The notes under the pieces: generated by a model
Databases searched by the model: none
What the model saw: the letters and a program-made list of their open reading frames with translations, nothing else
Told to the model about the DNA's origin: nothing
Origin: a phage
Sequence record: OZ346164.1
Length of the DNA: 64,000 nt
Reading direction: 5' to 3' (one strand)
Translations under genes and position numbers: made by a program
Part shown: piece by piece, positions 53,588-63,593 of the stretch
How positions within the stretch are numbered: the stretch's first letter is position 1
Layout: each line of letters starts with the position of its first letter

Positions 53588-53613
53588 AAATAAAAAAGGC
53601 TCCCGAAGGAGCC
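53588..53613 (-). terminator. rho-independent terminator (minus strand)
   Basis: GGCTCCTTCGGGAGCC hairpin followed by T-run on minus strand, after lysozyme gene. Confidence 0.55.
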
Positions 53614-53623
53614 TATGAAGATA

Positions 53624-54088
53624 TTACTTTGGGTATACACTGTCAAGATAAATGTCAGCTTCCATTCTACGTCTGTTTTTCAGTCCGTTTGAAGTGACCT
53701 TCTTACCTTTGACTGTAACCTTGTTCCACCACTGCATAGCTTCTGCACAACCCACCTTATTACCAGCATTGTGGCGCTTGATAAATGTGGAATCCTGCAT
53801 AGCTGTGATACCAATGTTGTATGTTTCACTTACAAGTGCGTCAAACTCATTCTGAGAAGTTGGAACATTGACGGCTTTGTTCACTGCTGCAACAAACTTT
53901 TCAACATCTGCGAGAAGATACTGTTCAGCTTGTTCAGCGGTAATCTTCATACCCATCTTAACAGGTTTTCCGTCAATACGGATTGTCCCATACCCGATTG
54001 TTGGGATTCCGGCAGAATCTTCGTAAGCCTCTAACTTCAGACCTTCAAAGAACTTAATAGCTTCTAAACCTTTTCTTGAGAGTTGCAT
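53624..54088 (-). CDS. endolysin, T4-type lysozyme
   Basis: EGLKLEAYEDSAGIPTIGYG carries Glu/Asp/Thr catalytic arrangement of T4 lysozyme family. Confidence 0.8.
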   Translation of the reverse strand: MQLSRKGLEAIKFFEGLKLEAYEDSAGIPTIGYGTIRIDGKPVKMGMKITAEQAEQYLLADVEKFVAAVNKAVNVPTSQNEFDALVSETYNIGITAMQDSTFIKRHNAGNKVGCAEAMQWWNKVTVKGKKVTSNGLKNRRRMEADIYLDSVYPK

Positions 54089-54972
54089 TATGCCTCCCCT
54101 GCTGGATTAACTGTAACTGTTGCTGCATTAGATGTTACAGAGCCACCTGCGCCAGTAACTACACAGGTGTAGCTTCCTGAATCAGCAGCGGTTGCTCCTT
54201 CTTTGGTGTAGGTTGCAGTAGTTGCATCGAGGATGTCTTCCTCATCTTTCTTCCACTGATAACCTGTTGCACCTGTTGCCACAACATTCAACGTTAAGGT
54301 CTCACCTTCATTGATTTCTTGATTGGTTGGCTGTTGAGTGATGACAGGAAGTGCATTCACAGTCACTGTTGCTGCATCTGAGGTAACACTTGTTCCACCC
54401 TCTCCAGATACAACACAAGTGTATGAACCAGCATCAGAAGGTGCTACTGACTGTTTTGTGTAAGTTGCAGAATTGGCACTAGGGATGTCCTCACCATCCT
54501 TCTTCCACTGATATCCAGTGGCGTTAGTTGCTAGAATGCTTAGAGTAAGTGTGCCACCCTCATTGACTGTTTGACCTGTCGGTTGCTGAGTAATTGCTGG
54601 TGGCTTAATAGCATCCTTCAACTTAGCATTCAACATTGAGAACGGCTTAACTCTTGCCAACCATTCACAGTAAATTGTGTCAACATCTTTACCATTGATG
54701 ATTGCATACTGCAAATCCATGAAGAAATCAGCAGTTCTCATCTGTGCACCAACACTGTAAAGCAATTCATCACTAAATGGAACTTTGTAGTCTGGTTTGT
54801 AGTCAAACTTCTCAACTTCTGCAATATCAGCTTCAGGCCAATATGAACTATAGGTAAGTGGTAAAATAGCCTCTTGATATGTTCTAAAATCATACCTCTT
54901 ACCAGCCTTTACATTTGCAATGAAACCCTTCACAAACTCTTTGAAGTCTGGGTAAGTCTTTGCTTTAATCAT
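54088..54972 (-). CDS. protein with two tandem Ig-like domains
   Basis: Two repeats of ITQQPT..EG.TLTL...ATGYQWKKD...SGSYTCVV..G; N-terminal domain paralogous to next gene. Confidence 0.5.
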   Translation of the reverse strand: MIKAKTYPDFKEFVKGFIANVKAGKRYDFRTYQEAILPLTYSSYWPEADIAEVEKFDYKPDYKVPFSDELLYSVGAQMRTADFFMDLQYAIINGKDVDTIYCEWLARVKPFSMLNAKLKDAIKPPAITQQPTGQTVNEGGTLTLSILATNATGYQWKKDGEDIPSANSATYTKQSVAPSDAGSYTCVVSGEGGTSVTSDAATVTVNALPVITQQPTNQEINEGETLTLNVVATGATGYQWKKDEEDILDATTATYTKEGATAADSGSYTCVVTGAGGSVTSNAATVTVNPAGEA

Positions 54973-55340
54973 TTCTTTTTAGCCTCTAAATGTGCGTTTA
55001 GTCTAAAATAACCTTTGTGATGCGGAGATACATCACCAACAACAATACCTTTAACCTTATAGCCTTTACCAATTACATACTGGATATCCATAAGGAATCT
55101 TCCAAGTCCAACAATATGGAACATTGGATATAATAGGTTCTCAGAATCTGGAATATTGATTTCAGGTTTGTAGGTGCATTGTTCGATTGTTGGTGTAATA
55201 TCTTCTTCAGGCCATTTGCTGAGTCTCCATGTCAAAGGTGTTGGGATAACATCATTAAGGTTGTACCTTTCACCATTTTGCACGGAATTGATATAGGATT
55301 GTAGGAAGCAATAAAAGTCTTTTGCACTCTTAGCTTTCAT
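54969..55340 (-). CDS. hypothetical protein (paralog of N-terminus of 54088..54972)
   Basis: Shared pattern KAK..Y.F...Y...V..G.RY...WPE.DI...YKP...LY...F.MD.QY.I..GK. Confidence 0.4.
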   Translation of the reverse strand: MKAKSAKDFYCFLQSYINSVQNGERYNLNDVIPTPLTWRLSKWPEEDITPTIEQCTYKPEINIPDSENLLYPMFHIVGLGRFLMDIQYVIGKGYKVKGIVVGDVSPHHKGYFRLNAHLEAKKK

Positions 55341-55387
55341 TAAATATCCTTATAAATAGTTAAAGGGGCATCAGCCCCTATTCACAC

Positions 55388-56597: not shown

Positions 56598-56969
56598 ATG
56601 AAAAACAGAACAAACAAAGGCCAGTTTAAAAAAGGCCAGTCTGGAAACCCATCTGGAAGACCAAAAGGCTCTCGTAACAAAAGTTCACTCGTAAAAGCTC
56701 AACTGACCATTGATAATTCTGCTGAGTTCGCTGCAAAGCTGTTTGAGGCGATTGTTACAAGGGACGCGGCTAAGCTTGCAGAGTTCGGGTTAAACACAGA
56801 TGACGTAACCATCAAGAGTATGATTGAGGTCGGTAAAACTATCTTTACTCACTCAGCAGGTGAGATGAAAGCACTTGCAGCAGACACTAAGAAGACTCCT
56901 GATAATGGTGGTCAACAACAGACAGATAACAAACCAACGTTCTCTGCTGTAGCGACTCTCAAAAAATAA
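56598..56969 (+). CDS. hypothetical protein with basic N-terminus
   Basis: 123 aa; KGQSGNPSGRPKGSRNK motif. Confidence 0.4.
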   Translation: MKNRTNKGQFKKGQSGNPSGRPKGSRNKSSLVKAQLTIDNSAEFAAKLFEAIVTRDAAKLAEFGLNTDDVTIKSMIEVGKTIFTHSAGEMKALAADTKKTPDNGGQQQTDNKPTFSAVATLKK

Positions 56970-57050: not shown

Positions 57051-58466
57051 ATGAGCGAGTTATTTAAACATGCGCACCTTCATGCAGGTCGAACTGAAAA
57101 TGGTGCTGTAAACCATACTTCATCAATGTCTGCTCTGGTAGACTTCTACAAAGCCGCTGGCTCAAGCCGTAGCAATGTAGAAGTCTTACCAGACCTGTTC
57201 TACAAAGCTTTGCGTGAGGATGTTGATGTTGCAGTTCGTATTTTACTGCATATGCGAGATGTACGAGAGGGTATGGGTGAGCGTAAAGCCTTCCGAACTG
57301 TTTTACTTCAAGCAATTGAAGATAAGGTTTTAGAACCTACACAGGTTCTTCGCATTATGGATAAGATTGCAGAACTTGGTCGTTTTGATGACTTCAAAAT
57401 CTTCGTAGGTACTCGTTTTGAGACAGATGCCTTCAAACATTTAGAAGCAGCATTACTAGACCCTGCAACAGCAGGTTTGGCAGCTAAGTGGTTACCACGA
57501 GTCAAACCACGTCATAAGCAGTTTGTAAAACGTTTCTGCAAGTTTGCCAACTTGAGTGAGAAAGAGTACCGCACACTGTTGTCTGCACTATCTGATACAG
57601 TTGAGCAAAAAATCTCTGCTAATGAGTTTGGTAAGATTGACTACAGTAAGATTCCTTCACTTGCTGCTGCACGTTACCAAAAACTGTTTAACCGTAAAGA
57701 TGGAGAGCGTTACAAAGCTTACATCGAGTCCTTATCAAAAGGTGAGACTAAGATTAACGCTGGTGCTGTTTACCCATACGATGTGATTAAATCTGTCAAG
57801 TATGGTAATGCAGATGTTGCTAATGAGCAGTGGAAAGCACTACCAAACTGGATGGCAGAAGGTGAAAACATCTTGTGTATGTCTGATGTATCAAGTTCAA
57901 TGTCTTGGGTGAATTTTGGCTCCATTACTGCTCTGGATATTGGTGTATCACTTGCCTTGTATGTAGCAGAACGCAATACAGGTTGCTTTAAGAATGAGTT
58001 AATGGTTTATTCAACAAACCCTCACTTCATCGAACTGAGTGGTGATTTACGAAACCGTCATCGTCAGGTGATGCGACACGTTGAATATGGCTCAACTAAC
58101 TTACAAGCAGCTTTTGACCGCATTCTTGAAACAGGTAAAAGAAACAACTTGACTCAGAAAGATATGCCAAGTAAGCTTATCATCTTCTCCGATATGGAGT
58201 TCAATCAGGTTGATGGAGCTAACGGTCGTACAAACTTTGAAGCAATTCAGAGTAAGTACAAAAAAGCTGGATATGAGATGCCACAACTGGTATTCTGGTA
58301 CTTAGCAAACCGTAATGGTACTTGCGAAGTATCTGTTAAGGATAACGGTGTAGCAATGTTATCAGGGTTCTCTCCAGCCACTTTAAAAGCTCTGCTTGGT
58401 GGTGAGAAGTTTGACCCAATCAGTGTAATGCTCAAAGCAGTAATGATTGACCGTTATATCTGGTAA
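57051..58466 (+). CDS. von Willebrand factor A domain protein
   Basis: MIDAS-like DVSSSMS motif in C-terminal half; 471 aa. Confidence 0.5.
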   Translation: MSELFKHAHLHAGRTENGAVNHTSSMSALVDFYKAAGSSRSNVEVLPDLFYKALREDVDVAVRILLHMRDVREGMGERKAFRTVLLQAIEDKVLEPTQVLRIMDKIAELGRFDDFKIFVGTRFETDAFKHLEAALLDPATAGLAAKWLPRVKPRHKQFVKRFCKFANLSEKEYRTLLSALSDTVEQKISANEFGKIDYSKIPSLAAARYQKLFNRKDGERYKAYIESLSKGETKINAGAVYPYDVIKSVKYGNADVANEQWKALPNWMAEGENILCMSDVSSSMSWVNFGSITALDIGVSLALYVAERNTGCFKNELMVYSTNPHFIELSGDLRNRHRQVMRHVEYGSTNLQAAFDRILETGKRNNLTQKDMPSKLIIFSDMEFNQVDGANGRTNFEAIQSKYKKAGYEMPQLVFWYLANRNGTCEVSVKDNGVAMLSGFSPATLKALLGGEKFDPISVMLKAVMIDRYIW

Positions 58467-58630: not shown

Positions 58631-58708
58631 TCTCTGTTTAGCTCAGCTTGGTAGAGCGTTCCGTTTGGGGCGGTAAGGCCGGAGGTTCAAGTCCTCCAAC
58701 AGAGACCA
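58631..58708 (+). tRNA. tRNA-Pro (anticodon UGG)
   Basis: 7 bp acceptor, D stem GCTC/GAGC, loop TTTGGGG, T arm GGAGG-TTCAAGT-CCTCC. Confidence 0.75.
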
Positions 58709-58715
58709 AATTAAT

Positions 58716-58793
58716 GTTCCAGTAGACAAAATGGTATAGTCACCACTCTTTCAAAGTGGATATCTGAGGGTTCAAATCCCTTCTGGAACGCCA
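58716..58793 (+). tRNA. tRNA-Glu (anticodon UUC)
   Basis: Acceptor GTTCCAG/CTGGAAC, anticodon stem CCACT/AGTGG, loop CTTTCAA, encoded CCA. Confidence 0.75.
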
Positions 58794-58883
58794 GTTTTGA
58801 CAGAAGACCAATTACAGCAAACTTAATCTACTCATCTGAAAGTTAATCGGACAAAGAAGATATTTGGTCTGGTCATTAAGAAT

Positions 58884-58960
58884 TGCGGGTATAGAGAAAG
58901 GGCGTCTCACATGTCTCATTAGCATGGTATCGGCAGGTTCGACTCCTGCACCCGCCTCCA
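58884..58960 (+). tRNA. tRNA with anticodon CAU (Met or Ile2), 1-72 mismatch
   Basis: Loop CTCATTA, T arm GCAGG-TTCGACT-CCTGC, acceptor pairs 2-7 only. Confidence 0.6.
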
Positions 58961-59042
58961 AATTTACAGAAGACCGTTTACAGCAATATTTATTAAATTT
59001 TTAGCGGAAAAATTGAAAGATACGGTCTGGTAATACTAAATA

Positions 59043-59120
59043 TGGTTAGGAAGCACATAAGGTATGTGCGGTCGCCTGTTAAGCGAATGGCACAGGGTTC
59101 GAATCCCTGACTAACCGCAA
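59043..59120 (+). tRNA. tRNA-Asn (anticodon GUU)
   Basis: D stem GCAC/GTGC, loop CTGTTAA, T arm CAGGG-TTCGAAT-CCCTG. Confidence 0.7.
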
Positions 59121-59128
59121 AATTAAAT

Positions 59129-59216
59129 GTGTCGTTATCCCGTAGATGGTAGCGGTGGGGACTGTAAATCCCTTGTCATTGAGACTCGGTAGGTTCGACT
59201 CCTACACGGCACACCA
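59129..59216 (+). tRNA. tRNA-Tyr (anticodon GUA), long variable arm
   Basis: Acceptor GTGTCGT/ACGGCAC, loop CTGTAAA, about 15 nt variable arm, encoded CCA. Confidence 0.75.
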
Positions 59217-59221
59217 ATAAA

Positions 59222-59298
59222 GGCTATGTAGTTTAACTGGAGAAAATACTCCCCTGTCACGGGAGATGATGTGAGTTCAAGTCTCATCGTAGCCGCCA
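59222..59298 (+). tRNA. tRNA-Asp (anticodon GUC)
   Basis: Acceptor GGCTATG/CGTAGCC, stem CTCCC/GGGAG, loop CTGTCAC, encoded CCA. Confidence 0.75.
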
Positions 59299-59499
59299 AT
59301 TTTGAGAGGGCTATTTAGCCCCTCCCTTAAAGAGTTCTTACGAGTATTCTTTAAAGGAGCAGAAGACCAAATACAGCAAGAATGTATGATATTTTCAAGC
59401 CAATTCAATTTTGAAAAATTTAAAACTTGGTCTGGCTCAACAAATTTACAGAAGACCGTTTACAGCAAAACTTAAACAATCTATTTCTCGGTAAAGAAA

Positions 59500-59540
59500 A
59501 GGCGAAGGTTCGATTCCTTCACTCGGCAGAGGTCGAGTTG
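59500..59540 (+). ncRNA. tRNA-like T-arm plus acceptor minihelix (not a full tRNA)
   Basis: GAAGG-TTCGATT-CCTTC T-arm-like hairpin directly followed by ACTCGGC-AGAG-GTCGAGT hairpin and D-loop-like GTTGGTGTAATGGTAG. Confidence 0.4.
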
Positions 59541-59730
59541 GTGTAATGGTAGCACTTAAGATGATAAACAACGGTCTGGTAATTATCTTTGCAGTAGCTT
59601 ATGTGGCTAATTATGTCGTCCCATGAGTGCCGATGAATTTCCTTAGCATGATTCTAGATTAGCTTAATAGGAAATGACTCTACAGACCCTTTAGCAAGGT
59701 CTGCGTAGGTTACTGCAAAGATGATTTAAT

Positions 59731-59806
59731 GGAAGTGTAGCAGAATGGTGATGCGGCAGACTTTTAATCTGACAGGCGATGGGTTCGAATCCCTCCACTT
59801 CTACCA
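59731..59806 (+). tRNA. tRNA-Lys (anticodon UUU)
   Basis: Acceptor GGAAGTG/CACTTCT, loop CTTTTAA, TTCGAAT T-loop, encoded CCA. Confidence 0.65.
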
Positions 59807-59811
59807 AAAAT

Positions 59812-59888
59812 GGTTCAGTCGCAGATAAGGTAATGCAAGGGTTTCATAAGCCCTATGAATGTGGGTTCGATTCCCATCTGAACCTCCA
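59812..59888 (+). tRNA. tRNA-Met (anticodon CAU)
   Basis: Acceptor GGTTCAG/CTGAACC, stem AGGGT/GCCCT, loop TTCATAA, encoded CCA. Confidence 0.7.
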
Positions 59889-59890
59889 AT

Positions 59891-59966
59891 GCTGTGAAAG
59901 CACATATGGATGTGCATTCGGCTGATAACCGAAAGGCAGAAGGTTCGAATCCTTCTCACAGTACCA
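59891..59966 (+). tRNA. tRNA-Ile (anticodon GAU)
   Basis: Stem TTCGG/CCGAA, loop CTGATAA, T arm GAAGG-TTCGAAT-CCTTC, encoded CCA. Confidence 0.75.
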
Positions 59967-59982
59967 ATTTCAATAAAGTTGT

Positions 59983-60010
59983 TGACATTAAGATGTGACT
60001 ACTTTATAGT
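59983..60010 (+). promoter_or_regulatory. sigma70-like internal promoter in tRNA cluster
   Basis: TTGACA, 16-17 bp spacer, TATAGT. Confidence 0.5.
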
Positions 60011-60214
60011 AACCTTAGTTTTCGTTGCGTAGCGTCTATTTTGCAAATTTAAAATAAATGCAAACGACAATGTTTTTCTGGCAGTAGCTTGATAGGCTAA
60101 ACACCAGTGAGGTCTTCCAATCCCTCATCAAAGAATTTGGCGTACTCGCCCACGGTATGATTAATAAGGTGGGCATCTTTAAGGGCTTTCTAATAGAGTC
60201 TTTAAAGATAATTA

Positions 60215-60296
60215 CGGGGCGTATCTCAGCGGTCTTCTAAACCGCCGTTAACCGAGTAAGTGGAGTATGCGGGTTCGAGTCCTGCCGCCTCGACCA
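60215..60296 (+). tRNA. atypical tRNA-like gene, possible anticodon UCU (Arg)
   Basis: Good T arm and acceptor (CGGGGCG/CGCCTCG, CCA encoded) and GCGGT-CTTCTAA-ACCGC anticodon-like hairpin, but D-arm spacing non-canonical. Confidence 0.35.
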
Positions 60297-60439
60297 ATTT
60301 AGTTAGCAGATTACTTAGACGACCTAAGCGGGTCTTCCTGTAGGGAGGTGGTCTGTATCTCATGTTTTCCAGAACATGTAAATAATCTGAGAAGGGGCTT
60401 TACAGTGTTGAGATAATACGGTAAGCTTCGAATTATAGT

Positions 60440-60522
60440 ATGGGACGATGTTAAGACTCTAAGGCATGAGCAACGGCCTCCAAAACCGTTTCAAAGGGGT
60501 TCAACTCCTCCGTCCCATGCCA
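60440..60522 (+). tRNA. tRNA-Trp (anticodon CCA), enlarged D region
   Basis: Acceptor ATGGGAC/GTCCCAT, loop CTCCAAA, TTCAACT T-loop, CCA encoded; about 7 extra nt in D region. Confidence 0.5.
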
Positions 60523-60535
60523 AAGTCTTATTAGG

Positions 60536-60623
60536 GGTAGGTAGCGGCTAATGGCAGCCAAACAGTCTTGAAAACTGTTGCCACTGTAGAGATACGGTGA
60601 GGGTTCGACTCCTTTACTTACCG
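60536..60623 (+). tRNA. tRNA-Ser (anticodon UGA), long variable arm
   Basis: Acceptor GGTAGGT/ACTTACC, stem ACAGT/ACTGT, loop CTTGAAA, about 20 nt variable arm. Confidence 0.7.
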
Positions 60624-60881
60624 CCTAATAAGATTTTAAAGCCAAGCTTCATTCGGATGTCGCTTTGGTATCCCTCGTGTATTGTCGTACACACTGATAA
60701 AACACCTAGTAGGTGTCACGGAGAAGAGATAATATCAAGCTCTCCAAAGGTTCTAGTCACCGGATTAAACAAGACTATGCAAAGACCTTTTTAGGTCTTT
60801 TTAGAGGGCTTCTAAGGTTATTACAGCTTGTTGTGGAACCTTGTTGCTTAGGTTCTTAGAAGTTCTCTAAAAAGATTTAAT

Positions 60882-60958
60882 GCACCTATAGCCCAACTGG
60901 TAGAGGCAGCAGACTTAGAATCTGCTCAGTGTGAGTTCGAATCTCTCTAGGTGTACCA
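60882..60958 (+). tRNA. tRNA with Leu anticodon UAG but short variable arm
   Basis: Stem GCAGA/TCTGC, loop CTTAGAA, discriminator A, CCA encoded; only 5 nt variable loop. Confidence 0.55.
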
Positions 60959-60965
60959 AATTAAT

Positions 60966-61041
60966 GCAGGTGTAGCAAAATGGTTATGCGGCTGACCCTT
61001 AATCAGTAAGACGATGGGTTCAATTCCCTCCACCTGTACCA
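60966..61041 (+). tRNA. tRNA-Lys (anticodon CUU), tentative
   Basis: Acceptor GCAGGTG/CACCTGT, loop CCCTTAA (C at position 33), CCA encoded. Confidence 0.5.
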
Positions 61042-61047
61042 AACAAT

Positions 61048-61123
61048 GGGGTCATAGTTTATATGGTTAAAATTCGAGTTTTGCAAACTTGGGAACTGAG
61101 TTCAATTCTCAGTGACTCCACCA
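61048..61123 (+). tRNA. tRNA-Ala (anticodon UGC)
   Basis: Acceptor GGGGTCA/TGACTCC, loop TTTGCAA, T arm CTGAG-TTCAATT-CTCAG, CCA encoded. Confidence 0.7.
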
Positions 61124-61129
61124 ATTAGT

Positions 61130-61204
61130 GCATCCATAGTTTAAACGGGAAAATTACAGTCTTCCAAACTGAGGTTGAGGGTTCGATTCCCTCTGGATGC
61201 TCCA
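61130..61204 (+). tRNA. tRNA-Gly (anticodon UCC)
   Basis: Perfect acceptor GCATCCA/TGGATGC, loop CTTCCAA, T arm GAGGG-TTCGATT-CCCTC. Confidence 0.8.
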
Positions 61205-61211
61205 AATTAAT

Positions 61212-61287
61212 GCTCCTATCGTATAATTGGTTATTACGGTTGCCTTGTAAGCAACTTATCAGGGTTCGAGTCCTTGTGGGAGCACCA
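61212..61287 (+). tRNA. tRNA-Thr (anticodon UGU)
   Basis: Stem GTTGC/GCAAC, loop CTTGTAA, TTCGAGT T-loop, CCA encoded. Confidence 0.8.
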
Positions 61288-61290
61288 ATT

Positions 61291-61380
61291 CAGAGGTCAA
61301 GTGAAAGACCGCTTTGAGTCAACTGAAGACCGTAACAAATTCCACGAAGTTGAGTTAGCGGCACAACTTCAGACCTCTTT
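61291..61380 (+). ncRNA. long structured hairpin element between tRNAs
   Basis: CAGAGGTC ... GACCTCTT closing stem around about 75 nt containing GAAGACCG motifs; no T-loop. Confidence 0.35.
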
Positions 61381-61383
61381 CAT

Positions 61384-61458
61384 ACTCGCTTAGTTTATAT
61401 GGTAAAACATCACCCTTACAAGATGAAGAAAAAGGTTCAAGTCCTTTAGTGAGTACCA
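61384..61458 (+). tRNA. tRNA-Val (anticodon UAC)
   Basis: D stem GTTT/AAAC, loop CTTACAA, T arm AAAGG-TTCAAGT-CCTTT, CCA encoded. Confidence 0.7.
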
Positions 61459-61459
61459 T

Positions 61460-61537
61460 GTTCCAGTATCCCAATTGGCAGAGGATGCAAGCTCAAACCT
61501 TGTATTAGTGACGGTTCGAATCCGTCTTGGAACACCA
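61460..61537 (+). tRNA. tRNA with Leu anticodon CAA but short variable arm
   Basis: Stem GCAAG/CTTGT, loop CTCAAAC, T arm GACGG-TTCGAAT-CCGTC, discriminator A, CCA encoded. Confidence 0.55.
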
Positions 61538-61542
61538 ATTTT

Positions 61543-61618
61543 GCAGGATTAGTTCAAATGGATAGAGCAACAGTCTACGAAGCTGCTAATAGGGGTTCGA
61601 ATCCCTTATCCTGCGCCA
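61543..61618 (+). tRNA. tRNA-Arg (anticodon ACG)
   Basis: Perfect acceptor GCAGGAT/ATCCTGC, D stem GTTC/GAGC, loop CTACGAA, CCA encoded. Confidence 0.8.
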
Positions 61619-61637
61619 ATTTAAAGAGGCTATTTAG

Positions 61638-62195
61638 ATGAGATATTTGAAGTATGCTTCATGGATTTTCTTAGCTTTGTTAGAGCCATTTGCAGCAATC
61701 TTAGCAGTTATCTTAGCACCTTTTGTAGTTCCATTCTACAGTGAGAAGAAAGGGCACTTACCTTTCGGGTTCAGATGGATGGAGACATATGACAACCCAA
61801 TTGATGGTGATGAAGGTCACGTTAAAAGATGGGCTAATATTAGATGGATTGGTAAACTAGGTGTCTACATGCAAAGAGTCGGATGGCTCTGGAGAAACAA
61901 AGCTTATAACTTCTCTTACCATGTATTAGGAAGAGATGTAAGAGATGTTACTAAGTGGAAAGGTAATATCAACGTAAGTTCTGACCCCGAAGATAATCAG
62001 ACAGGTTATCTCCTAATGTGGAACAGTAATGCTTGGGGATTATTCGCTTTTATCCCATCAATTAAAATCTTTGGTAAACAATTTTACTGGAGAATTTATA
62101 TTGGATGGAAACTAAAAAGTGTTGTCCCAGAAGAAAGAGCATTCTCAAGGGAAAGAGTTATGTTGGCATTCTTTATTCATCCACTGAGAAAGTAA
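61638..62195 (+). CDS. membrane protein encoded inside tRNA cluster
   Basis: 185 aa, hydrophobic N-terminus, Trp-rich. Confidence 0.45.
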   Translation: MRYLKYASWIFLALLEPFAAILAVILAPFVVPFYSEKKGHLPFGFRWMETYDNPIDGDEGHVKRWANIRWIGKLGVYMQRVGWLWRNKAYNFSYHVLGRDVRDVTKWKGNINVSSDPEDNQTGYLLMWNSNAWGLFAFIPSIKIFGKQFYWRIYIGWKLKSVVPEERAFSRERVMLAFFIHPLRK

Positions 62196-62203
62196 AGATT
62201 TAA

Positions 62204-62279
62204 AGGGGATTAGTTTACAAGGTTAAAACCTCGGTCTTTGAAATCGAAGAAGTTGGTTCAATTCCAACATCCCCCGCCA
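62204..62279 (+). tRNA. tRNA-Gln (anticodon UUG)
   Basis: D stem GTTT/AAAC, stem TCGGT/ATCGA, loop CTTTGAA, T arm GTTGG-TTCAATT-CCAAC. Confidence 0.7.
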
Positions 62280-62281
62280 AT

Positions 62282-62360
62282 GCTCCATTACTCCAATTGG
62301 CAGAGAGGCCAGACTTAAAATCTGTGTTATGTATCGGTTCGAATCCGATATGGAGTACCA
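62282..62360 (+). tRNA. tRNA with Leu anticodon UAA but short variable arm
   Basis: Loop CTTAAAA, T arm ATCGG-TTCGAAT-CCGAT, discriminator A, CCA encoded. Confidence 0.5.
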
Positions 62361-62365
62361 AATTT

Positions 62366-62441
62366 AGCGGTATAGCATAACTGGCAATGCAGCAGCCTCT
62401 GAAGCTGTCCTATTAAGGTTCAAATCCTTATGCCGCTGCCA
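62366..62441 (+). tRNA. tRNA-Gln (anticodon CUG)
   Basis: D stem GCAT/ATGC, stem GCAGC/GCTGT, loop CTCTGAA, T arm TAAGG-TTCAAAT-CCTTA. Confidence 0.65.
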
Positions 62442-62472
62442 CTTCTAAGGATTCTTGCGAGAGTCCTTAAAT

Positions 62473-62548
62473 GTGGCCTTATCATAAACGGTAATGACCC
62501 ATGCTGTGAACATGGTCTATACGGGTTCAAATCCCGTAGGTCACCCCA
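62473..62548 (+). tRNA. tRNA-His (anticodon GUG)
   Basis: D stem TCAT/ATGA, stem CCATG/CATGG, loop CTGTGAA, T arm ACGGG-TTCAAAT-CCCGT. Confidence 0.8.
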
Positions 62549-62553
62549 ATTTA

Positions 62554-62630
62554 TAGTCCAAGTAGCTTATATGGTTAAAGCGCGTGTCTGAAAAACATGA
62601 GAAGAGAGTTCAAATCCCACTGGACTACCA
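62554..62630 (+). tRNA. tRNA-Phe (anticodon GAA)
   Basis: Acceptor TAGTCCA/TGGACTA, stem CGTGT/ACATG, loop CTGAAAA; T stem weak. Confidence 0.6.
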
Positions 62631-62646
62631 ATTTCAAAGGTGCTTA

Positions 62647-63381
62647 ATGAAAGAGATGACAGAACAAGGTAAGGAGATTTTTAATCTCTTAAAAACTGGT
62701 AAAGGGTTCTCTAACCCGCTTATTACTGGTGCAGCAGTTCTCGGTGGAACCGTAGCTGCCTCTACATCACTTGTAAGCTCTATTAGTTCTGTAACAGACC
62801 CTACAATGAAGGAGAAGCTTGTTGCTGCTGGACTTACAACAGTCCTTCTAAACAGCTTTACAACAAGCCTGACAAGCACTACAGCAACCACTAAGACCCT
62901 AACAGACTATGGTCAAAAGTCTATTGATGAGTTTTCATCACGTATGCAGGTAGCAAAGGGATACTCCAATGTTATGGGTGCAGCAGGAGAACAAGTTGGT
63001 TGTACACCATTCAGTGGTATTATGGGTGTTGCTACAGAATATGGTCAAAAAGCTATTGATACGATTAACAGTACACTAGAGAGTGTTAATGGTGTGTTAA
63101 GTGACTTACAAGATGCTATTGATAAGGGTCTTGATACTGTTTCTGATTTAGCTAATCAGGCTGTTAGTAAGATTAATGAAGGTATTTCAAAGATTACAGC
63201 TTATGCAGATGAAGTTGTGCAGATGATTGAAGAAGAAGCTGCCCTTATTGCAGAGTACCTTAAAACGAATATCAATGGGTTCTTAGCAGGTATCTTACCA
63301 GACTGGTTTGATGATGCTTGTAAAACTGGTGTAATCGACACTATTGCAACACCAGAAATGAAGAACGCATTGCAGAAATAA
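62647..63381 (+). CDS. hypothetical protein encoded inside tRNA cluster
   Basis: Start moved to Met after tRNA-Phe (track start 62584 overlaps the tRNA); Ser/Thr/Ala-rich helical protein. Confidence 0.45.
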   Translation: MKEMTEQGKEIFNLLKTGKGFSNPLITGAAVLGGTVAASTSLVSSISSVTDPTMKEKLVAAGLTTVLLNSFTTSLTSTTATTKTLTDYGQKSIDEFSSRMQVAKGYSNVMGAAGEQVGCTPFSGIMGVATEYGQKAIDTINSTLESVNGVLSDLQDAIDKGLDTVSDLANQAVSKINEGISKITAYADEVVQMIEEEAALIAEYLKTNINGFLAGILPDWFDDACKTGVIDTIATPEMKNALQK

Positions 63382-63382
63382 T

Positions 63383-63475
63383 GGAAGATTAACCCTAAAA
63401 GGTAAGGGAGCAGTTTGCTAAACTGCCAGTAGCTGAGAAATCGGTGTACCAGTTCAAGTCTGGTATCTTCCTCCA
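63383..63475 (+). tRNA. tRNA-Ser (anticodon GCU), long variable arm
   Basis: Perfect acceptor GGAAGAT/ATCTTCC, stem GCAGT/ACTGC, loop TTGCTAA, long extra arm. Confidence 0.75.
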
Positions 63476-63480
63476 ATTTT

Positions 63481-63555
63481 GAATCCGTGACAGAAATGGA
63501 TATGTGCCTGTCTGCAAAACAGGTTTATAAGGGTTCAAGTCCCTTCGGATTCTCC
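63481..63555 (+). tRNA. tRNA-Cys (anticodon GCA)
   Basis: Perfect acceptor GAATCCG/CGGATTC, stem CCTGT/ACAGG, loop CTGCAAA, CCA encoded. Confidence 0.8.
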
Positions 63556-63593
63556 AAGTTATTTTACTCTCTCTCAATTAAAATAATAATAAT

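Follow-up and report, generated by a model that had tools for sequence, protein, structure and literature searches.

Why should a gene for a protein with tandem Ig-like domains lie directly beside an endolysin gene? The question was raised by a first-pass annotation of the window, a 64,000-nucleotide stretch of phage DNA (record OZ346164.1). It took a position next to a lysozyme as unexpected for a virion protein and suggested that the Ig-domain protein and an adjacent paralogue might be carbohydrate-binding or cell-wall-targeting accessories. The window comes from a Felixounavirus: its DNA is 98.9% identical to that of Escherichia phage ekra, and almost all of 248 related records belong to the same genus. 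The explanation that we propose, and hold as a whole to be highly probable, is that the 294-aa Ig-domain protein is the Ounavirinae hexamer-centre decoration protein, that the 123-aa protein is a duplicate of its capsid-binding domain (CapBD), and that both are encoded in a small unit of conserved order.

Gene order around the endolysin

Both open reading frames are present on the minus strand. The 294-aa gene, hereafter the Hex-Dec gene after its orthologue in phage Bas63, spans 54088..54972, and the 123-aa paralogue (Felix O1 ORF37, Bas63 gene 125, phrog_4463) spans 54969..55340. Their neighbour is indeed a T4-type lysozyme, a 154-aa endolysin (53624..54088, minus strand) that matches PF00959 with an E value of 7e-41. 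The three genes form one compact minus-strand unit, of which the endolysin is the final gene, and their stop and start codons overlap: the stop codon of the paralogue overlaps the Hex-Dec start, and the endolysin ATG overlaps the Hex-Dec stop codon (TAATG).

Direct reading of the sequence showed a GC-rich hairpin, GGGGC-TGAT-GCCCC followed by TTTAAC (55365..55378, minus strand), between an upstream 196-aa gene and the paralogue. Table 2 of the Felix O1 study (PMC3185647) includes the same hairpin sequence among its predicted rho-independent terminators. An AAGGA ribosome-binding site is readable at 55347-55351. At the other end, a terminator scan found an intrinsic terminator 3' of the endolysin, AGGCTCC-TTCG-GGAGCCT followed by TTTTTTATTTT (53597..53614, minus strand), which is likewise annotated in phages Barry and Michonne. 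A sigma-70 promoter scan gave 7 sites against 9.5 expected, with no excess over chance, and therefore allows no statement on promoters.

The last codons of the paralogue read GCT AAA AAG AAA TGA, the ATG of Hex-Dec lies in the -1 frame, and we considered whether a programmed -1 frameshift fuses the two proteins. This was rejected because the AAAAAG motif is absent in Mooglevirus (GCT AAG AAA TGA) and because Suspvirus EcSzw-2 has an 8-nt overlap, with Hex-Dec in the +1 frame. The arrangement is one of ordinary translational coupling.

The order paralogue, Hex-Dec, endolysin is common to Felixounavirus, Mooglevirus and Suspvirus, and was found in Barry, VpaE1, Felix O1, UAB_Phi87, Pr103Blw, Bas63, Sf17, Michonne and EcSzw-2. 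In Kolesnikvirus and a Hafnia phage, a single CapBD-Ig gene adjoins the endolysin. The window follows this pattern: at the conserved locus, the 294-aa gene directly precedes the endolysin gene and lies outside the structural module, from which it is separated by ~10 kb. This placement is an oddity already remarked on for Felix O1 and for Bas63, where over 10 kb separate the Hex-Dec gene from that module (PMC3185647, PMC12609058). The Hex-Dec gene would thus adjoin the endolysin through membership of a small unit whose order is conserved in the subfamily, and not through a role in lysis.

The 294-aa protein and its predicted place on the capsid

A phmmer search against the PDB matched the 294-aa protein to chain 9ncf_S, the Hex-Dec of Bas63, with an E value of 5.8e-248, and to 9c2d_S, gp20 of phage Sf14, with an E value of 7.4e-165. 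Residues 1-290 align to residues 1-290 of 9ncf_S (domain E 8.6e-170), and the first 124 residues are nearly identical. On these alignments, the protein is the direct orthologue of Bas63 Hex-Dec (PDB 9NCF), Sf14 gp20 (PDB 9C2D) and Felix O1 Gp36. It is predicted by orthology to lie on the capsid surface as a decoration protein, and to be neither a lysis accessory nor a tail protein. Felix O1-type phages are already known to carry this protein as a Hoc-like decoration of the capsid.

The orthologues are well placed in the virion. Felix O1 Gp36 was detected in CsCl-purified virions by 14 peptides at 44% coverage (PMC3185647). Sf14 gp20 was found in particles by mass spectrometry and modelled by cryo-EM at hexamer centres, in pentamer-proximal hexamers only; capsid binding is the task of its first 118 aa, in which Arg79 and Arg107 form salt bridges to Asp221 of the major capsid protein gp34 (PMC11821841). 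Cryo-EM of Bas63 likewise showed Hex-Dec, described as Hoc-like and built of a CapBD and Ig domains, at facet-edge hexamers only (PMC12609058). In both phages the protein is monomeric, with its CapBD centred in the 60 pentamer-proximal hexamers of a T=9 capsid, and both papers report no density on the remaining hexamers (PMC12609058, PMC11821841). The lysozyme neighbour that had been read as speaking against a virion role is thus shared by proteins of the capsid surface.

In the window protein, the N-terminal CapBD (54601..54972, minus strand) is nearly identical to the domains modelled in Bas63 and Sf14. Because this domain is ~97% identical to the orthologous domain of close relatives with demonstrated capsid binding, and both arginines are conserved, we infer that the protein of this phage would bind its capsid in the same way. 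As in the close orthologues, one monomer would occupy each of the 60 pentamer-proximal hexamers, with the N-terminal ~120-aa CapBD seated in the central depression and, as in Sf14, anchored by Arg79 and Arg107 to Asp221. The 20 hexamers on the true three-fold axes would remain empty of Hex-Dec, and two I-set Ig domains would project from the head as a flexible string. The two arginines are invariant in the CapBD alignment, and the dN/dS of the domain is 0.042. AlphaFold2 modelled this part of the protein poorly (pLDDT 30-50). A word-indexed protein search with the CapBD returned close relatives only, and an exhaustive profile search returned just 14 clusters; therefore, there is no wider CapBD family to exploit.

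The remainder of the protein consists of two tandem Ig-like domains, which match Pfam Ig_3 (E 3.5e-23), Ig_2 (E 4e-18) and I-set (E 3.4e-16) in two stretches each. Domain 1 (aa 125-208; 54349..54600, minus strand; Ig_3 and I-set) carries the motifs GYQWKKDGED...AGSYTCVV, and domain 2 (aa 209-294; 54091..54348, minus strand; Ig_2 and I-set) carries GYQWKKDEED...SGSYTCVV. Pairwise alignment of the two domains gives 66% identity for the protein and 67% for the DNA; the latter value is under the threshold of Tandem Repeats Finder, which accordingly missed the repeat at the DNA level. Structure prediction, which had been proposed as a check on the Ig assignment, bore it out: AlphaFold2 gives both domains an all-beta fold at pLDDT ~95, and Foldseek against the PDB matched tandem I-set Ig structures such as Robo2 Ig2-3 (E 6e-15) and titin I67-I69.

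Bas63 Hex-Dec, Sf14 gp20 (PDB 9C2D, 9C3A) and Felix O1 Gp36 share with the window protein the same CapBD, Arg79 and Arg107, the I-set repeats, and the position downstream of the 123-aa paralogue and upstream of the endolysin. Only the number of Ig domains differs, with two in the window and Felix O1, three in Sf14 and four in Bas63. Domain 1 has its orthologue in the first Ig domain of every relative, at 88-100% identity in Felixounavirus. Domain 2 is 92% identical to Bas63 Ig4 and 99% to VpaE1_ev78 Ig3, and only 65-70% to the middle domains. It therefore corresponds to the last Ig domain of the versions with three and four domains, so that the middle repeats are gained or lost in register.

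Comparison with better-known decoration proteins shows where the likeness ends. Like T4 Hoc, Hex-Dec is a non-essential monomer at the hexamer centre with an outward string of Ig-like domains and a proposed role in adhesion or aggregation. However, the capsid-binding domain is C-terminal in Hoc and N-terminal in the 294-aa protein; according to the Bas63 authors, the Hex-Dec CapBD is larger than that of Hoc, topologically distinct and pseudo-two-fold symmetric (PMC12609058). Unlike Hoc, Hex-Dec occupies only a subset of hexamers. The PHROG "Hoc-like head decoration" families match the Ig region only (residues 120-292, E 5e-29), no sequence likeness to Hoc was detected outside the Ig domains, and no Hoc chain is among the 60 of 97 PDB matches listed (E up to 0.01). 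The protein works like Hoc, yet it is no Hoc homologue outside its Ig domains. T5 pb10 (PDB 5LXK, 8ZVI) also shares an Ig domain (E 2e-12), but the match spans only residues 129-207 with no detected similarity in the capsid-binding domain, and pb10 has one Ig domain and sits on a T=13 capsid. A distant member of the CapBD family is gp38 of Kolesnikvirus phiEa21-4, a "conserved structural protein" with 37% identity over residues 24-119 that is also encoded directly upstream of the endolysin. In its case, a Big_2-type Ig-like domain (GenBank annotation note) takes the place of the I-set domains, and the genome has no separate CapBD-only paralogue.

Two other accounts of the 294-aa protein have to be set against these data. 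Most database records of relatives call the orthologues a "putative tail protein" or "major tail protein", and phrog_3995, which the protein matches over its full length (E 1e-171), is placed in the category "tail". The label goes back to 2010, when Felix O1 Gp36 was named "major tail protein" from homology and its presence in the virion, and the Ig region does match PHROG "major tail protein" families. The likeness to tail proteins is limited to the promiscuous Ig domains, residues ~120-290, and the models of two independent cryo-EM studies put the orthologue on hexamers of the capsid and not in the tail. PDB 9NCF and 9C2D refute a tail location for the orthologues, and we regard it as almost certainly wrong for this phage. 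It is also very improbable that the pair assists the endolysin, with Ig domains that attach to peptidoglycan or LPS from the inside, as the suggestion of a cell-wall-targeting accessory would have it. Adjacency to the lysozyme gene and the overlapping stop and start codons are conserved across the subfamily, as such a role would lead one to expect. However, the orthologues are structural components of the capsid; in Felix O1, lysin transcription peaks at 25 min and that of ORFs 36 and 37 at 60 min (PMC3185647); a terminator separates the CapBD-Ig gene from the endolysin gene in phiEa21-4; and signal peptides, transmembrane segments and matches to wall-binding domains are absent from both proteins. 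The accessory suggestion thus found no support.

By analogy with T4 Hoc, the Ig string of the decoration protein would most likely let the particle adhere weakly and multivalently to glycans or cell surfaces, or would control particle aggregation, and we favour the idea that the Ig domains bind carbohydrates or surfaces. Hex-Dec is non-essential on laboratory hosts; fitness scores for Bas63 genes 124 and 125 are near zero, with gene 124 more needed on S17-1.

The 123-aa paralogue

The N-terminal paralogy noted in the first-pass annotation was borne out by BLASTP, in which residues 2-100 of the longer protein and 1-99 of the shorter one align at 38% identity (E 5e-17). The PHROG families of the two proteins cross-match (E 1e-15 to 1e-17), and phmmer aligns residues 2-117 of the paralogue to 9ncf_S (E 3e-12). 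A joint alignment of paralogues and CapBDs has 29 invariant columns, and the paralogue is homologous to the CapBD along its full length; it matches no Pfam family. The gene is a duplicate of the CapBD alone that dates back to the common ancestor of Felixounavirus, Mooglevirus and Suspvirus, and across these genera the protein is 72-99% identical. The anchor arginines have been lost: the aligned positions are G78, which falls in a VGLG motif nearly invariant among paralogues, and H108, next to which a basic K109 is retained. The AlphaFold2 model (mean pLDDT 58) is too poor for fold comparison and gave no Foldseek match with E <0.5.

The dN/dS of the paralogue is 0.145, ~3.5 times that of the CapBD, and the protein is under purifying selection. 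The gene is missing in ~8% of relatives, including Z31 and CECAV_041. In SP3_SHan-2021, the first ~48 residues of the paralogue are joined to the remainder of Hex-Dec; this chimaera hints that the two are still partly interchangeable. Expression, the other check proposed at the outset, is documented for Felix O1, where ORFs 36 and 37 are both transcribed, maximally at 60 min and together with the morphogenesis genes, and Gp36 reaches the virion (PMC3185647). Gp37 is missing from the Felix O1 structural list, which demanded at least 25% coverage (PMC3185647). The paralogue is not in Table 1 of the Sf14 study, which gives assigned structural proteins only (PMC11821841), and it is unmodelled in the cryo-EM of both Bas63 and Sf14 (PMC12609058, PMC11821841). 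We found no discussion of the 123-aa protein in the literature on relatives. It is a real, constrained, dispensable protein, transcribed late in Felix O1, and as a conserved, dispensable copy of the CapBD it is the sole unreported detail of this locus.

What might such a copy do? Our best guess, offered tentatively, is that it acts in head morphogenesis on hexamer centres or on Hex-Dec itself, perhaps tuning the sites or the timing of Hex-Dec binding. That it takes part in capsid decoration as an Ig-less hexamer plug, which would fill the 20 three-fold hexamers, transiently cap hexamer centres or escort Hex-Dec, seems to us unlikely, although if true, Felix O1-type phages would pattern their capsid surface by a two-paralogue system. 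We are more doubtful of a minor, Ig-less decoration protein that sits, for instance, on the 20 hexamers of the true three-fold axes and has escaped notice through low copy number or symmetry averaging. The paralogue is homologous to a capsid-binding domain and transcribed late with the head genes, and its stop/start overlap with Hex-Dec suggests co-ordinated synthesis. Furthermore, the three-fold hexamers differ precisely at the Asp221 contacts and the paralogue precisely at the Arg anchors; icosahedral averaging would blur a monomer on a three-fold axis; and the coverage cut-off of the Felix O1 list is consistent with a scarce protein. Against this, both cryo-EM papers see no density on the other hexamers, the paralogue is not among the Felix O1 or Sf14 virion proteins listed, and it evolves faster than the CapBD.

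We think it similarly doubtful that the paralogue now has a non-structural task in the conflict of phage and host, such as that of decoy, counter or trigger towards a host defence that senses capsid-associated proteins. Bas63 gp125 was among the 16 genes (candidate counters or triggers) taken to clonal validation in the PhageMaP defence screen, with insert primers listed, and a dispensable, variably present protein that evolves faster than its parent domain would suit such a role. However, the PhageMaP paper does not discuss gp125, which is not among the reported validated hits; just 2 of 6 candidate triggers were confirmed; and a dN/dS of 0.145 is no sign of an arms race.

Implications for Felix O1-type phages

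The main feature of this locus is already known, and the analysis adds little new matter to it. For this genome, it corrects the widespread "tail protein" misannotation and explains the Ig-domain gene beside the endolysin as a structural gene located at a distance from the structural module. The paralogue is a cheap and well-defined target for further work. Practical interest in Hoc-like proteins centres on their use as non-essential platforms for display and on their possible part in determining whether phages are retained on mucosal or cell surfaces, and the in-register gain or loss of Ig repeats, from 1 to 4, among near-identical therapeutic Felixounaviruses provides a natural series in which the retention idea may be tested.

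The three-gene unit and its surroundings

Three ORFs lie head to tail on the minus strand of the window, encoding proteins of 123, 294 and 154 aa, in that order. The 123-aa ORF (54969–55340) has a GC hairpin (55365–55378) and an AAGGA ribosome-binding site on its 5' side and overlaps the 294-aa ORF (54088–54972) through a stop/start ATGA. The 294-aa ORF overlaps the 154-aa ORF (53624–54088) through TAATG. This last gene encodes an endolysin (PF00959 phage lysozyme, E 7e-41), and a strong intrinsic terminator (53597–53614) lies on its 3' side. PhageMaP reported that the Bas63 orthologue of the endolysin, g123, triggers the Ec67 retron defence, with toxicity seen only when the retron is present. 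The region is 94–99% identical to dozens of Felixounavirus genomes, the best being Escherichia phage ekra at 98.9%. A Felix O1-type locus with ~99% protein identity to enterobacterial phages is also found in the record "Staphylococcus phage SA1", whose host label looks at odds with the rest of the group.

Divergent from this block, a 123-aa DUF5681 protein is encoded on the plus strand at 56598–56969. The PhageMaP tables give its Bas63 orthologue, gene 129, strongly negative fitness (−1.5 to −3.5), so this small protein appears important. A 471-aa DUF2828 + DUF7788 protein (57051–58466, plus strand) lies directly upstream of an array of 25 tRNA genes (58632–63556). It is annotated as an "RNA-binding protein" in some relatives and occupies two ORFs in phage Barry. 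Its Bas63 orthologue, gp130, is described as Ro60-like and as countering the "ppl" defence system (PhageMaP).

Assignment of the 294-aa protein to the Hex-Dec family

Felixounavirus records usually label the 294-aa gene a "putative tail protein," and the first-pass annotation assumed a non-virion role linked to lysis. Cryo-EM and proteomic data from orthologues contradict both readings. A PDB sequence search returned 9ncf_S ("Immunoglobulin-like domain protein," 460 aa) with E 5.8e-248 and 9c2d_S/9c3a ("putative tail protein," 372 aa) with E 7.4e-165, and the 294-aa protein is nearly identical to both cryo-EM orthologues over its first ~124 residues. In phage Bas63, this hexamer-centre decoration protein, Hex-Dec, is bound only at facet-edge hexamers of the T=9 capsid; its capsid-binding domain (CapBD) is followed by one to four Ig-like domains, which were not resolved in the Bas63 structure (PMC12609058). 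Its counterpart gp20 was found in Sf14 particles by mass spectrometry and binds only pentamer-proximal hexamers; the contact is made by the N-terminal 118 residues, in which Arg79 and Arg107 form salt bridges with the major capsid protein at Asp221 (PMC11821841). Furthermore, CsCl-purified Felix O1 virions contain Gp36 (14 peptides, 44% coverage; PMC3185647), which is the product of ORF36 and the orthologue of our 294-aa protein. Both arginines are present in the window protein. Given this orthology and the retained arginines, we assign the 294-aa protein to the Hex-Dec family with high confidence, and we infer by orthology that it would be located on the capsid.

The position beside the lysozyme is shared widely. 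The order paralogue (the 123-aa gene), Hex-Dec, endolysin was observed in Felixounavirus (Barry, VpaE1, Felix O1, UAB_Phi87, Pr103Blw and Bas63), Mooglevirus (Sf17 and Michonne) and Suspvirus (EcSzw-2), and in more distant phages (Kolesnikvirus phiEa21-4 and a Hafnia phage) one CapBD-Ig gene stands upstream of the endolysin. In Bas63, the Hex-Dec gene is >10 kb outside the structural module (PMC12609058). By RT-PCR, Felix O1 ORFs 36 and 37 are of the late class, with a maximum at 60 min alongside the morphogenesis genes, whereas the lysin gene, ORF35, has its peak at 25 min (PMC3185647). With gene order conserved and timing different, the proximity to the lysozyme is a conserved peculiarity of how these genomes are organised. 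The 294-aa protein has no signal peptide, transmembrane segment or wall-binding domain, and nothing ties it to lysis.

Surface binding by the Ig-bearing protein is nevertheless plausible. The Bas63 authors drew a functional comparison with T4 Hoc (PMC12609058), and the best-supported reading is that the Ig string may have a Hoc-like role in adhesion or aggregation. In the PhageMaP knockout map, Bas63 gene 124 (Hex-Dec) has a fitness of ~0 on laboratory hosts and is required more on E. coli S17-1; an adherence role was offered by those authors as speculation.

Ig-like domains and their copy number

The first-pass annotation was right in every particular of what it observed, as seen from the ORFs, the Pfam Ig and lysozyme matches and the N-terminal alignment. 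Pfam matched two stretches of the 294-aa protein (Ig_3 3.5e-23, Ig_2 4e-18, I-set 3.4e-16). AlphaFold2 with a 15-sequence alignment modelled residues ~125–290 as two all-beta domains at pLDDT ~95, and the N-terminal domain was poorly modelled in the same run. The top Foldseek matches in the PDB were tandem I-set structures, such as Robo2 Ig2-3 (E 6e-15), MALT1 and titin. Ig1 and Ig2 share 66% identity at the protein level and 67% at the DNA level, a divergence too great for Tandem Repeats Finder, which did not report the repeat.

Copy number varies, as already described for Bas63 (PMC12609058) and Sf14 (PMC11821841). There is one Ig domain in EcSzw-2, CECAV_041 and many 210-aa metagenomic proteins, two in the window, Felix O1, VpaE1 and Sf17, three in UAB_Phi87, Pr103Blw, VpaE1_ev78 and Sf14, and four in Bas63. 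Our Ig1 corresponds to the first Ig domain in all relatives compared and our Ig2 to the terminal domain of longer versions (92% to Bas63 Ig4, 99% to ev78 Ig3); therefore, middle repeats have been gained or lost in register. VpaE1_ev78 (LR597663.1) has a three-Ig protein of 377 aa and VpaE1 (KM657822.1) a two-Ig protein of 294 aa. The first Ig domain of VpaE1_ev78 is 100% identical to that of the window and the terminal one 99%, which suggests that the Hex-Dec locus may recombine among closely related phages.

The 123-aa paralogue of the capsid-binding domain

The 123-aa protein matched no Pfam family, and it aligns with residues 2–100 of the 294-aa protein at 38% identity (E 5e-17). A −1 frameshift fusing the two was considered and rejected, as the slippery AAAAAG is missing in Mooglevirus and the frame relation is different in Suspvirus. 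The paralogue is 72–99% identical across Felixounavirus, Mooglevirus and Suspvirus. Of the 253 matching phage records, 233 have it in full length together with Hex-Dec; about 19 cross-match Hex-Dec alone, with no paralogue match. Median pairwise dN/dS is 0.145 for the paralogue, compared with 0.042 (CapBD), 0.109 (Ig1) and 0.067 (lysozyme): a genuine gene under purifying selection, with a faster rate of evolution than its parent domain. In the Erwinia and Hafnia phages, the single CapBD-Ig gene occurs alone and is detected only with the Hex-Dec CapBD as query; therefore, the 123-aa gene is a derived copy, and its distribution places the duplication in the ancestor of the three genera. When 1.8 billion representative proteins were searched exhaustively with a profile, only 14 clusters of the family were found, all either CapBD-only proteins or CapBD with varied beta-rich or low-complexity tails.

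The locus is also subject to loss and rearrangement. In the Felixounaviruses Shigella phage Z31 and Salmonella phage vB_CECAV_041, the 123-aa gene is entirely absent, leaving a 186-nt gap; Hex-Dec is broken into 134-aa and 55-aa pieces in Z31 and is a one-Ig version in CECAV_041. Evidently, both genes can be lost in isolated phages. Salmonella phage SP3_SHan-2021 (MW296865.1) has a single chimaeric gene at 2001–2879 and no separate paralogue gene. Residues 1–~48 are paralogue-derived (34/37 identical) and the remainder Hex-Dec-derived, with the crossover at a WPE[AE]DI motif common to both. This looks like a product of unequal recombination between the tandem paralogues.

At the capsid-anchoring arginine positions, the paralogue has G78 and H108, and the basic K109 is retained; its AlphaFold model was of too low quality to compare folds. 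The fitness of Bas63 gene 125, its counterpart, is noisy and around zero (PhageMaP). These features fit a late, non-essential protein still interacting with hexamer centres or with Hex-Dec. A minor virion component is equally allowed: the paralogue is absent from the Felix O1 structural-protein list, for which at least 25% coverage was required, though it is late-transcribed (PMC3185647). So is a new role in phage-host conflict, as Bas63 gp125 was among the 16 candidates for countering or triggering defence that PhageMaP cloned for secondary validation, and it is neither discussed there nor among the reported validated genes. The paralogue is unmentioned in both the Bas63 and Sf14 cryo-EM papers, and our literature search found no use of the name Hex-Dec beyond the Bas63 paper. 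Proteomics has documented the Hex-Dec-type protein itself since 2010, and structures have done so since 2025; its CapBD-only paralogue is apparently a previously unreported, minor detail of these phages.
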